Origin: an uncultured Verrucomicrobiota bacterium
GTDB lineage: Bacteria; Verrucomicrobiota; Kiritimatiellia; RFP12; UBA1067
Length of the DNA: 58,510 nt
Assembly (NCBI GenBank): GCA_945834475.1
Contig: CAMAHK010000005.1
Location: 1 to 58,510, forward strand
Direction of reading: 5' to 3'
Under the pieces are notes generated by a model. That model saw only the letters and a list, made by a program, of their open reading frames with translations. It was not told the origin of the DNA and ran no database searches. Positions 43,970 through 48,400 of the stretch are shown one piece after another. The position numbers were made by a program, and so were the translations under genes. How positions within the stretch are numbered: the stretch's first letter is position 1; each line of letters begins with the position of its first letter.

Positions 43970-45634
43970 CTAATCCTGCGAGACTGCCAGGCGAAAACCG
44001 AGGTACTCACTTCTGTAAAACGGGCTGGCGTAGTCACGATAAGACTCAGCAAGACAACTCGCGTGATTACGCCACCCTCCACGACGATACACACGCTCCG
44101 AACTACCAACCTCACTCCGGTCTTCACACCACTCCCACACATTGTCATTCATATCGAAAAGCCCCCAGGCATTCGGTTCCTTCAATCCCACAGCTTGTAT
44201 ACCCCGCTCTTCTCGGTTATAACTGTACCTCCATGTTCGGCTCCCCATATCGGTTATACCTCCTGCGTGGCAGGCTGTTTCCCACTCTTTTTCATTCGGC
44301 AAACGATATCTACGGCCATCCATCTGACTAACACACCTGATAAATTCCTGACAGTCCTTCCAGGAAATATTCTCCACCGGGCGGTCAGGTCCACGATAGT
44401 CTGAGGGGTTACTCCCCATGACAGCCATCCACTGAAGTTGTGTTACTTCCGTCCGCTGCATCTGATAACGCTGTCCAGGAATCGCAATCATCTCCGAATT
44501 GGCGATGATCGGCCCGAGTGCATGGTCTTTGATATACGACGGAAGCGCATCAACAAACGCCTTGAGCTGCTTACCCATGGCCACATCACACGTGCAGACA
44601 TCTTCCGCGGATTTCTCCATCGTCCTATGATCCATATACCAGGCTTGCAATTGCCGGGAAAGCGCATTCATCTCGCGAACCAAATCATTGCGCTTAGCAA
44701 CGGCTGCCGCGAGCACGCGGCTATAACGCACATCATCCATCTGAATGTGTTGCTTAAACACCTCGGAAAGTAGCGCGTCGAGCTCCTTGAATTCACGCCC
44801 CATCTTCTGATAAATGGCGTTCGATTCTGGCGCATACTTAACAGCGAAATCGGATATCTTGCCCTCCATCGGATTCATCTCCAGGAGTGTATATCCAGCC
44901 CGTTCGACATTTTCAGGGAGCAGTCGAACGGCAAGTCGCTGCGTATCAATCTGTGCGAAGTCCTTGTCGGACAAAACGCCGAAACGACTCAAAAGCCAAT
45001 AATGGCAAAGTTCGTCATGGCAAATGAAACACTCAGTACGTGCCTTCACAAATTTCTCAAGAACCTTGTTGAATGAATTCCACCTTGGATCCGTAGACTT
45101 AATCATCCAAGGTTCTGAGAACTCTTCGTTGAAGATCTGCTGAAGTTCAACTAAAGCATCACGTTTCTTCTCGTAGTTGGCATAAGCGTTCGGCAAATAT
45201 TTCGTACCAAATTCCGACAGCAACGCTTCGCCCGCCAGCGCATCCGATTCTGACATGCCCAGCCGAGGCGATGACCACTTCGCCAGCCAGTCGGCCTTTT
45301 CATCGCGATTACGTCTGCGACCCCCGAGAAATGGATTCTCATACCGATAACCCTCGGAATAACACTTCTTGATGGCTGCCAGATCATGTTCAACCGTCTT
45401 TTCATAAAGAGCGGTCCGCATGGCAAGTCGCATCTTCTCCGACCGCCTCGCCTCTGCCCGCTCGCGCCAACCGTTTTGGTACTTAGCTGTAAAGCCCTCT
45501 AACGAAACATTCGCCTCTCCATCATCACTTGCCTGCCATGCCGCATACTCATCTTTACGCTCAGCGCTAATGCACCCACAAAGCGATACAAACAATACGA
45601 TGCACGACAACAGAACAACATTCTTATTCATCAA
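43970..45634 (-). CDS. Lipoprotein with a helical N-terminal region and C-terminal FGE-sulfatase/CLec domain
   Basis: LCGC lipobox; TEVTQLQW, PVENISW, RLPNEKEWE, PNAWGLFDMNDNVWEW, LGFRL. Confidence 0.82.
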   Translation of the reverse strand: MMNKNVVLLSCIVLFVSLCGCISAERKDEYAAWQASDDGEANVSLEGFTAKYQNGWRERAEARRSEKMRLAMRTALYEKTVEHDLAAIKKCYSEGYRYENPFLGGRRRNRDEKADWLAKWSSPRLGMSESDALAGEALLSEFGTKYLPNAYANYEKKRDALVELQQIFNEEFSEPWMIKSTDPRWNSFNKVLEKFVKARTECFICHDELCHYWLLSRFGVLSDKDFAQIDTQRLAVRLLPENVERAGYTLLEMNPMEGKISDFAVKYAPESNAIYQKMGREFKELDALLSEVFKQHIQMDDVRYSRVLAAAVAKRNDLVREMNALSRQLQAWYMDHRTMEKSAEDVCTCDVAMGKQLKAFVDALPSYIKDHALGPIIANSEMIAIPGQRYQMQRTEVTQLQWMAVMGSNPSDYRGPDRPVENISWKDCQEFIRCVSQMDGRRYRLPNEKEWETACHAGGITDMGSRTWRYSYNREERGIQAVGLKEPNAWGLFDMNDNVWEWCEDRSEVGSSERVYRRGGWRNHASCLAESYRDYASPFYRSEYLGFRLAVSQD

Positions 45635-45645
45635 TCAGTCTTTCT

Positions 45646-46380
45646 CTAGTCATTCAAGAAACTATTTACCTTCTTGTTCCGCCTGGCATTTGGATCTTCC
45701 GCCGTCAGATCTTCGATAGAAAATTTAGTCGGATCCTCATCAATTTCAATCATCATATCCTGAATCGTACCGAGGACATCATTTAGCGAATTAATCTCCG
45801 CAAGTGCCGCATTCATCTTCACCTGCTCGGCCTGCTGAACCAGCTTCATCCGCAAGGATACCAGTTCTCGCTTCTTCGTCTTCAGAACGCTCTTACGGAT
45901 GGACACCTTCTTGGCGATTGCCGTATTGTCCTTGTACTCCTTCTTGGCGAGCTCAACACGCTCCATCGCATCGGCGATTTTGTCATTGAGTTCGTCCTCA
46001 TCAAGGTCATAGCCGTTGACAGACACCGGCCACTGCCCGTTCGCAGCCTTGTACGCAGCTTTGGCTTTCTTGAGAAAGTTTTCGTATCGACTCTGCGTAC
46101 TCGTTGCATCTTCTGCCATCCGCATAGCCTTCTTCTCCATACGAACCAAGGTGATGTTCTGAACTTCGATCTTAGACTTCAACTTGTCGCAATTCGCAAT
46201 CTGATCCTGAAGGAAAAGATACGGATTCGCTTGAATATTCTCGCTCGTCCAGGTTGAATCCTGTCGGATCGCCTCACGGAGTTCAGCATTGCGAACAACA
46301 GACGGTGAGTTCGAGATAAGCACAGTATCAGCCATTACCGCCAACGGAAAAACCGCGACACAAGCAACAAGTTTATTCAC
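45646..46380 (-). CDS. Secreted long coiled-coil protein, possibly PspA/IM30-like
   Basis: GTG start with AAGGAG SD; signal peptide MNKLVACVAVFPLAVMA; heptad-rich K/E/A/L helices with a central WPVSVNG break. Confidence 0.7.
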   Translation of the reverse strand: MNKLVACVAVFPLAVMADTVLISNSPSVVRNAELREAIRQDSTWTSENIQANPYLFLQDQIANCDKLKSKIEVQNITLVRMEKKAMRMAEDATSTQSRYENFLKKAKAAYKAANGQWPVSVNGYDLDEDELNDKIADAMERVELAKKEYKDNTAIAKKVSIRKSVLKTKKRELVSLRMKLVQQAEQVKMNAALAEINSLNDVLGTIQDMMIEIDEDPTKFSIEDLTAEDPNARRNKKVNSFLND

Positions 46381-46397
46381 GACAATCTCCTTCGTAA

Positions 46398-46620
46398 TTT
46401 CTGCCGCGAACAATCGTGCAGAAAGAAACGGCCTCTCTCCGATCTCTTGAGAGGCCCTGAGAAAGCCTGATGTGAAATACGAAGAGAGGCACGCAAGTGT
46501 GTGCGTGTTGCTCTGCATCAGTATCGTCACATCAGAAATTTCTCAGGTTTCTCAAGACGATTGCTTTGCAGCGTTTATGTCTTGTCTCGGCGATTCACTT
46601 GCGTGCCTCGCGTCAACAAG
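46398..46620 (-). ncRNA. Candidate structured 5' leader/attenuator RNA
   Basis: 113-nt imperfect hairpin 46445-46557, overlapping terminator GGCCTCTC/GAGAGGCC + GTTTCTTTCT (46420-46456), 14-nt perfect complement 46596-46609 / 46486-46499. Confidence 0.55.
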
Positions 46621-46666
46621 ACGAATTATACCAAAAACTCCGCCGATTCGGGGCGGAGTTTTTTGG
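46573..46666 (-). repeat. 94-bp terminator-promoter-leader unit, copy 1
   Basis: AAAAACTCCGCC..GGCGGAGTTTTT hairpin + TGGTATAAT + leader ending ACAAGACATAAAC. Confidence 0.85.
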
Positions 46667-46690
46667 AAGTGCGCATACTGCCGGATTGAA

Positions 46691-47089
46691 TCAAACTTCC
46701 TTGAGAATCAAGTCCAACCCATTGATCTTGCGGAAATGCGCATCAAACGTCACCAACGGGGCGTTCTCTGACATCGCTTACGCGGCGATCCAAACATCGT
46801 TGATTGGAATCATTGCGCCAATAGCTTTTAACTCTGTGTAGATTCGCCCGTATGTCTCTGCCGCAGCACTTGTGACATCCAAAGCCCGAACACTCGAAAC
46901 AGAGAGGAACTTCTCAAGCGCAGTCTTATTCTGCTCATACCGAGATCCCTTCCTAAACCCCGCTTCGAGTTCTCCTAACACTACCACAGGAACGAGTACA
47001 GTATCATAAGTCGAGAGGAATTGAGCGATATCCATCCGCCCTCGCAACAGGAACGAATAGACATTTGTGTCAATCACAATACGCTTCAC
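46691..47089 (-). pseudogene. vapC: VapC (PIN domain) toxin with a premature TAA at 46778-46780
   Basis: IVIDTN, VLGELEAG, IPINDVWIAA*AMSENAPLVTFDAHF; the frame continues with PIN-type sequence to TGA at 46691. Confidence 0.85.
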
Positions 47090-47328
47090 TGCCAATCTCC
47101 CGGCACAACCGTACGACGGGTTGCATCTTGAAATTCGGCAAACTGATTCTCATCCCAGATTCCGCAAAACTGCTCGAACGGATTGTCGACCTTATCCGCG
47201 ACATAACCCATCTTCTCGACAAGGAAAGCGACAAAAAGAGCGCCAAGCTCAGCACTCGAACGAGTTCCATTGCGCGTCGCAAACGACACCGCATCCTGCG
47301 GCGCATCAATCGTCAGCGTATAGCTCAT
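47086..47328 (-). CDS. Putative VapB-like antitoxin
   Basis: 80 aa, SD AAGGAG, C-terminal F.G.W......EF motif, GTGA overlap with vapC. Confidence 0.7.
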   Translation of the reverse strand: MSYTLTIDAPQDAVSFATRNGTRSSAELGALFVAFLVEKMGYVADKVDNPFEQFCGIWDENQFAEFQDATRRTVVPGDWQ

Positions 47329-47370
47329 TGCCTTCTCCTTTCCCCTGATCGCGTAAATTGTCACAACTTA

Positions 47371-47463
47371 GTTTATGTCTTGTCTCGGCGATTCACTTGC
47401 GTGCCTCGCATCAACATTGCGAATTATAGCAAAAACTCCGCCGGTTCGGGGCGGAGTTTTTGG
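47371..47463 (-). repeat. 93-bp terminator-promoter-leader unit, copy 2 (also the hemA terminator)
   Basis: Six substitutions and one indel versus copy 1; TGCTATAAT at 47423-47431. Confidence 0.85.
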
Positions 47464-47479
47464 GGTGGAAACATCCATC

Positions 47480-48400
47480 TTAGGCGCGTGACAAAGCCTT
47501 AAGCCATGCCTCCGTTTTCGCCACCGATTCTTCCACGATCCGCAGGCCCTTCGCGAGAAGCGCCGCGCGTTCGGTGTGGTCGCCTTGGGCGAGTTCGCCG
47601 ATTGTCTCGAGACTGATGAGCATCGCCTGCGGATCGTCTGCGACACGCGGGTCCACATCGCGCGGCGAGGCGAGGTCGAGAAAGAGCGTCGGCTTCGTGA
47701 GCGCGAGGCGGTCCGCCGCGACAACCGTATGCGGCGAGGCCGTCGCCGACACAACGATATCGCTTTGGGCGATTTCCATGTACCGCGAGTCGTAAGGGAC
47801 AAGCCGTGCCCCGAGTCGCTGGGCGAGATCTGCCGCGCGTTCGGGACTCCGATTGCAGATCGCGAGCGCCGCCGCGCCGCGTTCGGCCGCAAGTTCGGCG
47901 GCGAGCGATCCAGTCCGTCCGCTGCCGATCACGAAGACGCGCTTCCCGCGGCAGCCGAGCCGACGCTCGACTTCGTCCATTCCCGCACGGCAGACCGACG
48001 GCGGAACGGCCCCGAGGTCGAGCTCGGTCTTCACGCGCTTCGCACAGGTGATCGCGTCCCGCAAGATGCGATCAAGTTCCTTGCCGACGTGTCCCTCGGT
48101 GCGCGCCGCAGCATAGGCGTCCTTGATCTGTCCGAGGATCTGATACTCACCCAGCACCATCGACTCCAGCCCCGCCGCGATTCGAAACAAATACGCCAAC
48201 GCCTCCCACGCCCCCCTTGTCTCCCGGGCGTCGCAAGTCGGAAGTCTCAAGTCCTCCCGACGATAGAAGAAGACTTCTTTGCGATTACACGTCGAGAGTA
48301 CCATATACTGCTCGAAATCGAGCGGACCCAGATCGACCTCCGCCTCGTGAAACGCAGCGCCCAGCGTCTTCCAACTTTCGCCTCGGTAGCCAAAGCCCAT
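47480..48400 (-). CDS. hemA: Glutamyl-tRNA reductase (short form)
   Basis: LSTCNRKE, AAGLESMVLGEYQILGQIK, VIGSGRTG, ICNRS, SATASPH, DLASPRDVD. Confidence 0.9.
   Translation of the reverse strand: MGFGYRGESWKTLGAAFHEAEVDLGPLDFEQYMVLSTCNRKEVFFYRREDLRLPTCDARETRGAWEALAYLFRIAAGLESMVLGEYQILGQIKDAYAAARTEGHVGKELDRILRDAITCAKRVKTELDLGAVPPSVCRAGMDEVERRLGCRGKRVFVIGSGRTGSLAAELAAERGAAALAICNRSPERAADLAQRLGARLVPYDSRYMEIAQSDIVVSATASPHTVVAADRLALTKPTLFLDLASPRDVDPRVADDPQAMLISLETIGELAQGDHTERAALLAKGLRIVEESVAKTEAWLKALSRA

Follow-up and report, generated by a model that had tools for sequence, protein, structure and literature searches.

The window, meaning the whole stretch of 58,510 nucleotides analysed here, comes from the genome of an uncultured Verrucomicrobiota bacterium, a metagenome bin that is 85.5% complete and in 134 contigs, and from which a recombinase or more copies of the unit described below could be missing. 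The minus strand is the coding strand for every gene of the repeat region, where the following features lie, given in order of transcription.

47480..48400, minus strand: hemA, glutamyl-tRNA reductase (PF05201 and PF01488), whose 3′ end abuts copy 2 of the repeat unit
47371..47464, minus strand: unit copy 2 (upstream, truncated), with a left edge common to all four copies in the genome
about 47436-47456, minus strand: terminator hairpin of copy 2, with A and T runs on either side (47436-47451 by the scan tool)
47423-47428, minus strand: −10 hexamer of the copy 2 promoter, TGCTATAAT
47086..47331, minus strand: vapB-like small gene of 81 codons plus stop, overlapping the start of the PIN gene by 4 nt in GTGA
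46691..47089, minus strand: vapC (PIN) toxin gene, interrupted by an in-frame TAA at 46778-46780
46573..46666, minus strand: unit copy 1 (downstream, complete), whose 5′ leader continues into the RNA core
about 46638-46658, minus strand: terminator hairpin of copy 1 (46638-46653 by the scan tool)
46625-46630, minus strand: −10 hexamer of the copy 1 promoter, TGGTATAAT
46398..46586, minus strand: structured RNA leader of the attenuator type (covariance model, 143.4 bits)
45646..46380, minus strand: cargo gene 1, 244 aa, with a signal-peptide-like N-terminus and no family assignment
43970..45634, minus strand: cargo gene 2, 554 aa, with a C-terminal FGE-sulfatase (C-type-lectin-fold) domain (PF03781, E = 8.7e-21)

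Read across its stop codon, the vapC gene matches PF01850 with 64.5 bits over positions 1-118 of the 120 in the profile; up to the stop it gives 39 bits over positions 1-98, and similarity to the VapC models of NCBIfam is weak. In contigs of the public pig-gut runs X2 and X3 the stop codon reads CAA (46780 A>G). The 81-codon gene matched no Pfam or NCBIfam family and is called an antitoxin by position only, an assignment that the 4-nt overlap with the toxin gene fits. Cargo gene 1 has orthologues in four congeners (76-80% identity), which also lie behind the RNA motif. Their upstream neighbours differ from those in the window, and hemA is found in none of them.

The original prediction described two direct repeats bracketing the toxin-antitoxin (TA) genes, and sequence comparison confirms them: each is 94 nt long (46573-46666 and 47371-47464), the start-to-start spacing is 798, 87 of the 94 positions agree in a gapless alignment, and the leader end, which is the first 39 nt on the plus strand, is identical in both. 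Each unit is, as proposed, a self-contained terminator-promoter-leader module, running on the minus strand through an A-run, a hairpin (CTCCGCC..GGCGGAG), a T-run, TG(G/C)TATAAT and the leader. The promoter call rests on TGnTATAAT and its conservation, since a promoter scan of both units returned no −35/−10 pair and only this extended −10 element. Copy 2 is placed between the hemA stop codon and the vapB-like gene, and its leader fragment ends in the 13-mer ACAAGACATAAAC at 47371, exactly before the point at which the RNA core would begin. What follows the two copies is also different, as had been noted: the 81-codon gene and the PIN gene lie past copy 2, while copy 1 leads into the structured RNA, the 244-aa secreted protein and the FGE-sulfatase-domain protein. 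A strong terminator is predicted between vapC and the second promoter.

The 94-nt unit is the front of a larger element: a terminator comes first, the TGnTATAAT promoter next, and the remainder of the unit is roughly the initial 45 nt of the 5′ leader of a structured RNA. The full leader is about 190 nt long; besides the GCTGCAAAG core it contains a long hairpin that covaries, a U-run and, as an alternative fold, a terminator helix in which GCCTCTCTTCGTAT pairs with the 3′ segment of the leader. The terminator helix and U-run are visible in the leader alignment. In the window the minimum free energy of the leader is -84.1 kcal/mol (z = -6.0). Compensatory changes were found by RNAalifold in 23 of the 36 pairs of the long hairpin, several of which show all four Watson-Crick types. 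In the alternative fold 93.8% of positions are paired, versus 36-57% when the partners are slid, both sides change in 13 of 31 pairs, and none of 500 shuffles equals the observed pairing. The two folds, antiterminator and terminator, are thus mutually exclusive and covary, with frequent G-U pairs, and in GTRTTTC the R covaries with each of its two partners. A search of window positions 45500-48000 against Rfam 15 (E<=10) returned sub-threshold chance matches only, the best at 21.4 bits versus a gathering threshold of 55, and the RNA family appears to be undescribed. It is predicted to act by attenuation, with transcription starting at the putative promoters. Two other readings of the RNA were dropped: a leader peptide, on account of indels that are not multiples of three and of covarying pairs, and an attC-like single-strand DNA site, which fits badly with an element that always points toward the downstream gene, has a promoter and a U-run, and often uses G-U pairs.

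Eight copies of the leader are present in this genome, each on a different contig, and five congeners carry 4-15. BLAST matches were found in 36 of 100 relatives, at query positions of about 105-262. A wider sample of 150 other genomes of the class gave hits in 14, and the leader occurs in several other families of the class. A same-strand open reading frame follows the RNA in 85 of 89 loci. A Pfam scan of 82 such downstream frames found BspA-type LRR, Sel1 and ankyrin proteins, papain-like proteases, lectins and TIR proteins, with 38 frames lacking a family; the leader precedes diverse secreted or surface-protein genes in gut Kiritimatiellia. The layout in other species is TGnTATAAT, about 10 nt, a variable hairpin and then CCGAGRGACAAGAYAWAAC, the promoter lying about 55 nt upstream of the leader RNA, and the 13-mer or close variants of it flank the RNA core.

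This distribution changes the meaning of the sharp boundary at ACAAGACATAAAC. The 13-mer is the true end of copy 2, as first read, but elsewhere it is the conserved 5′ flank of the RNA: the conserved part in relatives begins at that very boundary, and the flank is kept even in single-copy species. The assembly as a whole contains exactly four occurrences of the 13-mer, two of them in the window, where 100 shuffles lead one to expect 0.01. A search for units ending in it, together with their cargo, yields four copies in two pairs with varying continuations, rather than the window's two alone. The second pair lies on contig C46, around a different, decayed vapBC-like pair, so that each of the two pairs encloses a different decayed TA pair. 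The toxins of both are broken, by the TAA in the window and by internal deletions on C46. About 250 nt of homologous RNA follows each unit pair, and the homology of window copy 1 with C46 continues over that length. The two upstream copies are 94.7% identical to each other, versus 92.6% and 91.5% for the within-locus pairs. Past its four units this genome has vapBC, a second TA pair in remnant form, and two leader-cargo operons that differ from each other.

Contigs from public pig-gut runs add further continuations after the unit, one of which, from run X3, diverges from the window 5 nt past the 13-mer. In the contigs of other samples the common left edge of the four copies joins at least four different upstream sequences. 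These contigs are short and end at the repeats, and none joins across the TA segment. Neither an empty site nor a circle was seen, which, with contigs that stop at the repeats, does not speak for their absence. The comparison is limited to stretches with contig cover, which 45670-46340 lacks in runs X2, X3 and X5. A contig joint of 46494 to 47422 was discarded, having only 21 letters on one side and sitting on an inverted repeat. Among JGI metagenome contigs there were no matches to the terminator-promoter 23-mer or to the leader-end 20-mer.

The arrangement of a truncated leader copy, a TA module and a full leader recurs in seven other species, with PIN, MNT-HepT and DUF3990 modules in the bracketed position. 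In total, 8 of the 89 loci, the window included, have a direct repeat of their own promoter/leader 0.66-1.0 kb upstream with a TA-like module between, a count that leaves aside the flagged loci L073 (30-nt repeat, insert with no Pfam family), L121 (short inverted match) and L128 (simple tandem repeats). Each of the eight loci has a TA-like insert. The flanking repeats are specific to each locus in sequence, 28-204 nt long and 83-95% identical. At L081 and L116 the duplication covers only 28-36 nt around the core start and flanks the TA genes together with a conserved element. Measured from the RNA core, the ends of the truncated copies are at 0, +21, +13, +11, +7, +26, -55 and -90, the C46 pair thus ending 21 nt further in than the window pair, and the upstream copy at L131 has an extra short repeat up to +16. 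In 6 of 9 cases the end falls within 0 to +26, a stretch that is the most conserved among paralogous leaders. Even loci with the same MNT-HepT family differ in where the truncated leader meets the TA, and the MNT-HepT cassettes of seven loci are similar from the start codon onward only, with no common non-coding ends.

Bracketing is one part of a wider association. A classical TA module lies directly upstream of about a quarter of the leaders scanned: at 7 of 29 loci in relatives (same strand in six), at 12 of 58 further loci, and at 17 of 64 when loci singled out for upstream repeats are included. In four genomes, picked after such a neighbour had been seen, 4 of the 7 HepT genes lie less than 1 kb upstream of a leader, versus about 0.01 expected. 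A sequence motif upstream of the RNA that was defined in this analysis, the E element, is present at 14 of 26 TA-associated loci versus 3 of 36 loci lacking a TA. Loci with this element mostly have no TGnTAnAnT box between TA and RNA, and several have a promoter-like box that belongs to the TA itself, immediately 5′ of the TA start codon.

Taken together, these results show that the repeat is the front module of a multi-copy family of structured leaders, predicted to be attenuators, and make it probable that the arrangement in the window arose by recombination among dispersed leaders with no dedicated recombinase involved. Copy 1 would be the working front end of a leader, driving the secreted-protein operon, and copy 2 a second front end, truncated precisely at the start of the conserved RNA core and now probably serving as promoter and 5′ UTR of a vapBC pair whose toxin gene is already broken. 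The history would then be one of recombination among dispersed conserved leader sequences, not of a site-specific recombinase, by a Campbell-type or short-homology exchange or by illegitimate recombination at the long hairpin's base. The fallback offered by the original prediction, homologous recombination, is viable, and its interpretation as a whole is partly supported. The arrangement may persist under selection, because the TA pair and the downstream operon both need a promoter. Three features fit this history poorly. The clustering of junctions near the start of the RNA core, and a TA-like insert in all eight bracketed loci, are more regular than random illegitimate recombination predicts. 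Repeats of 83-95% identity, some of only 28-36 nt, are poor substrates for RecA-type exchange. Finally, junctions that differ within the same MNT-HepT family are not accounted for by the homology-driven spread of a single ancestral cassette.

A bolder reading, which we regard as possible and clearly less likely than the history above, is a cassette economy centred on the leader, in which an RNA leader found across the class would mark accessory surface-protein operons, and TA pairs would be captured repeatedly at the 5′ edge of its long hairpin with local duplication of promoter and leader. It is possible that this would proceed by a target-copying insertion mechanism, or by the wiring of RNase toxins and stress-responsive promoters into leader control. 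Each of these routes can also be considered in its own right.

The first is a targeted insertion of an unknown kind, by which TA modules would enter at the 5′ edge of the core and duplicate 28-200 nt of the target. The conserved element after the TA stop codon, carried along in many loci, would belong to the insert, and the machinery would act in trans; the outcome can be likened to a very long target-site duplication or to the duplication of the repeat in CRISPR adaptation. Repeats that are specific to the locus rather than carried with the TA family, the minimal duplications around the core start at L081 and L116, the clustering of 6 of 9 junctions, the uniformly TA-like inserts and the enrichment of the E element at TA-associated loci all point this way. 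However, junction positions range from -90 to +26, the duplicated lengths differ seven-fold, and 5-17% divergence separates the two copies. The duplication moreover has as its left edge the natural 5′ edge of the leader family, which a staggered cut is not expected to respect, no candidate enzyme is linked to the loci, and the cassettes have no conserved termini. We consider such an insertion unlikely.

The second, to which we would give the same low standing, is functional coupling: TA genes would be kept near leaders, and the duplicated promoter-leader would be a selected way of expressing both. Variants are that an autoregulated TA promoter drives leader and cargo, that the TA stabilises accessory genes against deletion, or that RNase toxins (PIN, HepT and RelE-type) act on the leader RNA. 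The frequency of classical TA modules directly upstream, which is far above chance, argues for coupling, as do the HepT genes of the four pre-selected genomes and the promoter boxes of the E-element loci, mostly missing between TA and RNA and in several cases present at the TA itself. In the window, however, the predicted terminator between vapC and the second promoter indicates that co-transcription is not the design, and the broken state of both TA toxins speaks against any joint role being essential in this strain. RNase activity is in any case common to most type II toxins, and TA genes and accessory surface genes both collect in variable regions.

The mechanism originally favoured, in which cassettes are stacked by a tyrosine recombinase (Xer at a dif-like site, or an integron-like integrase) crossing over at ACAAGACATAAAC, is now very improbable. 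It drew on a right arm that starts TTATGT and on a proposed 11-6-11 dyad at copy 2, and is compatible with the presence of more than two copies with varying cargo. The arms of the dyad are, however, complementary at only 6 of 11 positions, a score that 174 of the 3972 positions in the 4 kb around it also reach and that is therefore at chance level. The left arm is part of the vapB 5′ UTR and is absent at copy 1 and at both C46 copies; on our reading of the sequences, a close relative of it probably lies within 17 letters after the promoter in contigs of other strains. Two Xer-like open frames are present in the genome, on contigs C16 and C13, but are uninformative because XerC and XerD are present in nearly all bacteria. 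Tyrosine-recombinase genes gave nine Pfam matches, in seven reading frames of the assembly, all of them on contigs other than C5 and C46. The best score against the integron integrase model (TIGR02249) is 77.8 bits versus a cut-off of 265, in an assembly whose 85.5% completeness means that absence of the gene is not proven. Nor is there a single-promoter array of promoterless cassettes, each unit having a terminator and TGnTATAAT, and the units repeat directly over 94-204 nt instead of forming 28-bp sites that alternate in orientation. The variation of the junction points, with the second pair ending at +21 and other species at seven other points, largely refutes this mechanism. Together with the chance-level dyad, the missing integrase match, the lack of a tyrosine recombinase on either contig and the lack of common ends in the MNT-HepT cassettes, it leaves a Xer or integron mechanism unsupported. 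The tidy boundary with its XerD-like half-site proved to be the conserved flank of an RNA, kept in single-copy species, and not a recombination core.

Least credible of all is a one-off local tandem duplication with no wider meaning, for which two copies 798 bp apart and 93% identical might speak, and which we rejected on the C46 pair bracketing a different TA, on the recurrence of the architecture in seven other species of the 89-locus set, and on two upstream copies that are more alike than either within-locus pair.

The leader family thus appears to be an undescribed and strongly covarying one, present in many copies per genome of an uncultured gut and rumen lineage. Its cargo (BspA-LRR, Sel1, ankyrin, protease and lectin) is of the kind that would be expected to come into contact with the host or host glycans, and a common leader implies a common control signal. 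The recurring leader-TA-leader architecture lends itself to work on how TA pairs lacking a promoter move and gain expression signals with neither transposase nor integrase, and a leader-centred cassette economy, if true, would newly link TA modules with cis-regulatory RNA.

Precedents for parts of this arrangement exist in several known systems. Like terminator/antiterminator leaders, the RNA is a 5′-UTR element on the same strand as the downstream gene, with a promoter about 55 nt upstream and two exclusive covarying folds, one of which is a helix with a U-run. It differs from known attenuators and riboswitches in having no Rfam 15 match, in its 4-16 copies per genome before unrelated surface or secreted genes rather than those of one pathway, and in the TA module that is often found upstream. 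In chromosomal integron arrays, TA cassettes are found among accessory genes of unknown function, with hairpin-forming boundary repeats between them, and the present loci similarly have small TA modules and accessory genes parted by a repeated hairpin element. Unlike in integrons, IntI was not found in this assembly, the repeat is a promoter and RNA leader whose G-U pairing is strand-specific, a separate promoter and terminator are present in every unit, the copies are dispersed rather than arrayed, and the junctions vary. The pdif modules of Acinetobacter plasmids, in which 28-bp XerC/XerD sites in inverted pairs bracket short modules including TA pairs, likewise place such modules between repeated sites; here, in contrast, the repeats are direct, of 28-204 nt and locus-specific in sequence, and the dyad is at chance level. 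The TA genes themselves resemble type II systems (VapBC and MNT-HepT) in the PIN toxin gene, its small upstream partner and the 4-nt overlap, and MNT-HepT and PIN pairs hold the equivalent place in other species. They depart from the typical type II pattern in the nonsense codon of the toxin gene, in a partner of no recognised family, and in a promoter and leader borrowed from a neighbouring RNA family.

The original prediction placed two direct repeats in the window, and both are there: each is 94 nt long, they are spaced 798 nt apart, and they are identical at 87 of 94 positions, including 39 nt at the leader end. Read along the minus strand, the unit consists of an A-run, a 7-bp G+C hairpin, a T-run, TG(G/C)TATAAT and about 45 nt whose 3′ end is the 13-mer ACAAGACATAAAC, found twice in the window against 0.01 occurrences expected. 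Both hairpins scored as terminator-like in a terminator/promoter scan. The promoter scan found no −35/−10 pair at either unit, so the promoter is predicted to be of the extended −10 kind only. All genes of the locus are on the minus strand, in the order hemB, hemL, hemA, upstream copy (copy 2), small gene, PIN gene, downstream copy (copy 1) and two cargo genes.

Features of the window locus and of related copies in its genome
47480-48400, minus strand: hemA frame, just 306 aa, matching the GlutR N-terminal domain and the NAD-binding domain; no dimerisation-domain match among the domain matches listed
47371-47464, minus strand: upstream, truncated unit copy
46573-46666, minus strand: downstream, complete unit copy
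46398-46586, minus strand: RNA leader
46596-46614 and 47394-47412: 5′ leader segments complementary to 46481-46499 in the RNA core (19 nt at 89%)
Contig C46, 19600-20497: second unit pair (leader loci L004 and L176)
Contigs C38, 21830-21980, and C22, 30950-31097: two more leader copies, near-identical over 150 nt upstream, another duplicated leader front end, without a toxin-antitoxin (TA) module

The assembly, a bin of 134 contigs that is 85.5% complete, contains exactly four copies of the unit, in two pairs, one in the window and one on contig C46. The C46 copies are 550 nt apart and enclose a different small gene and a PIN remnant with internal deletions, neither of which reached any Pfam family; the remnant retains the first ~10 codons and the C-terminal part. 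C46 ends 75 nt upstream of its upstream copy, and its leader is followed by genes for a 410-aa secreted protein and a zinc-ribbon protein. All four units have the A-run of the terminator as their left edge. On the right, the window's upstream copy halts exactly before GCTGCAAAG and that of C46 extends 21 nt more, while the two downstream copies have about 250 nt of common sequence beyond the unit (87% identity).

With the downstream unit as BLAST query, 36 of 100 relatives were matched, among them 32 of the 60 congeners. Conservation covers query positions 105-262 and therefore begins at the "sharp boundary" of the original prediction. When each species was represented by one genome, a pattern scan gave at least 118 such stretches, nearly all in gut or rumen Kiritimatiellia bins. 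In an alignment of 92 copies the conserved part forms a long imperfect hairpin; compensatory changes occur in 23 of its 36 pairs, and several pairs show all four Watson-Crick types. The middle strand, GCCTCTCTTCGTRT, has an alternative partner in a 3′ segment preceding a U-run. Counted with a local 5′ hairpin, this alternative fold has 93.8% of its positions paired, compared with 36-57% for slid partners; 13 of its pairs changed on both sides, and none of 500 shuffles did as well. The purine of GTRTTTC covaries with both its partners. Judged from the alignment, two such covarying folds are the signature of a putative terminator/antiterminator switch. The element has frequent G-U pairs, always faces a downstream gene (same-strand ORF at 85 of 89 loci) and, in the window copy, has a folding energy of −84.1 kcal/mol (z = −6.0), so that it is an RNA and not a DNA site. 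Rfam 15 gave no match at E≤10. No article naming both Kiritimatiell* and riboswitch was found in the part of the literature covered, and the lineage names are absent from the main text of one human-microbiome RNA survey.

In the 5′ leader of both units, 14 nt match the complement of the core's central hairpin and CCUC segment without a mismatch and could be a further alternative pairing; the corresponding segment of the C46 downstream copy lacks this complementarity. A short form, with the hairpin core but no terminator part, is present at two leader loci (L210, 3703-3821; L212, 4088-4212), and many covariance-model matches in other genomes span model positions 27-138 only, which is this form. 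In two genomes (G048 and G039) the orthologues of cargo gene 1 have it 0.4-1.4 kb upstream, with a 413-aa gene in between in G048.

In other species, a subclade of the RNA family has TGnTATAAT, about 10 nt, a variable hairpin and then CCGAGRGACAAGAYAWAAC before the core. One locus, L074, has a 13-mer identical to the window's, and CAATTTGC occupies its place in most other copies. Because the equivalent layout precedes the core in other species, the unit is the native front end of the leader (the preceding gene's terminator, a promoter and the 5′ leader) and not a recombination core.

The covariance model found 8 copies in the window's genome, 4 to 15 in each of five congeners, and matches in 14 of a class-wide sample of 150 other genomes (≤16 per genome, several families). 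A Pfam scan of 82 of the 85 downstream proteins gave BspA-type LRR (11), Sel1 (6), papain-like protease (3), ankyrin (2) and TIR (2) domains, along with lectin, subtilase, FGE-sulfatase, zinc-ribbon and acyltransferase types; 38 had no Pfam family. Many begin with a signal-peptide-like sequence. Leader copies also stand in tandem on the same strand, at distances of 130 nt to 5.6 kb (genome G284, contig C212, 13838-14339; G077, C8, 9489-13254; G055, C13, 61057-66805), and tandem units able to recombine with each other therefore exist.

The sequence from −140 to +40 around the RNA core was compared with the rest of its own locus at 89 loci, which flagged 11 of them. At eight of these, the window among them, the locus's own promoter/leader recurs as a direct repeat 0.66-1.0 kb upstream, each time with a TA-like module as the insert: besides the window, PIN (L079, L081), DUF3791/DUF3990 (L093) and MNT-HepT (L116, L127, L131, L054). 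The remaining three differ from this pattern (L073 unexplained, L121 inverted, L128 simple repeats). The bracketing repeats are 28 to 204 nt long, 83-95% identical and locus-specific in sequence, even among loci with a common TA family. Counted from the G of GCTGCAAAG, the main repeat ends at 0 (window), +21 (C46), +13, +11, +7, +26, −55 and −90; at L131 its end is at −74, with another, short repeat reaching +16. Seven MNT-HepT cassettes are similar (74-89%) only from the start codon on, with no common non-coding ends among them.

TA neighbors were also counted in two samples, which cannot be summed because their genomes overlap. Among 29 relatives' loci, with all 202 upstream ORFs of ≥60 aa scanned, classical families lie ≤1.5 kb upstream at seven (PIN 2, MNT-HepT 4 and YafQ-RelB 1, the last on the other strand); four more have putative TA pairs (DUF3791/DUF3990, DUF4160/DUF2442, a DUF2204 nucleotidyltransferase, Fic). 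Among 58 further loci, with same-strand ORFs of 75-260 aa only, the count was 12, with the DUF2204 type at two more (17 of 64 once six loci flagged by repeat comparison are added). In four genomes with 35 leader matches, picked after such a neighbor had been noticed, 4 of 7 HepT genes lie ≤1 kb upstream of a leader on the same strand (~0.01 expected). Only four PIN genes, the window's included, are detectable in its genome. At L134 (oriented 268-1372) one leader is directly preceded by a stack of two modules, a HepT gene and a complete MNT-HepT pair, just 18 nt apart.

A conserved element lies 3′ of the TA stop codon at many loci; scored by a motif of our own definition, it is present at 14 of 26 TA-associated loci versus 3 of 36 without TA. 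It is about 70 nt long (..AAACTGAAATGAAAGGAA..ACAGTRAAACGRTA..GGCGGGG-loop-CCGCC). Its start is no more than ~30 nt from the stop codon, in TA modules unrelated to one another, and it extends toward the RNA core. Loci with it (L081, L093, L116, L054, L034, L048, L040, L036 and contig C122, 614-700, of the window's genome) mostly lack the TGnTATAAT box, and from sequence the element may belong to a long leader that is transcribed together with the TA genes.

Part of the stretch occurs in 14 public runs (7 studies, chiefly of pig gut); strains were compared on contigs of four runs, all interrupted at the repeats. Three runs have a vapB variant, ~10% different, that is linked to the promoter via 17 other letters in place of 67 nt containing the leader fragment. 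The terminator edge (47460-47462) has at least four different upstream continuations, one being the C46 flank, and one 1453-nt contig with vapC (95% identical) and the downstream unit diverges from the window 5 nt past the 13-mer. The predicted variation of sequence after the unit thus holds in other strains, at several different points. The vapC nonsense codon (46778-46780, minus strand) is TAA in the window and in run X1, and CAA in runs X2 and X3 (46780 A>G); the toxin was therefore inactivated recently in the window's strain.

We conclude that the unit is the leader's front end and that the upstream copy is a truncated leader, which would now serve expression of the TA pair. The arrangement probably arose when the many conserved leader copies recombined with one another, or by recombination at their hairpin base, and would be retained because the TA pair and the downstream part each need a promoter. 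Leader recombination does not fully explain the regularity of the pattern, since the insert is always a TA module, the junctions cluster at the core start and, at many loci, the conserved element lies 3′ of the TA stop codon. A target-copying insertion process may be the origin instead, or a functional tie of RNase toxins to the leader RNA may be involved.

Several results speak against stacking by a tyrosine recombinase or an integron-like system. No integron integrase reaches the cut-off in the assembly (best 77.8 bits versus 265), and its tyrosine-recombinase genes (nine Pfam matches, seven reading frames) are all on other contigs. The proposed 11-6-11 dyad matches at 6 of 11 positions, equalled by 4.4% of nearby positions, and its left arm is the vapB 5′ UTR. 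Junction positions are not constant among loci, and the repeats are direct and long.
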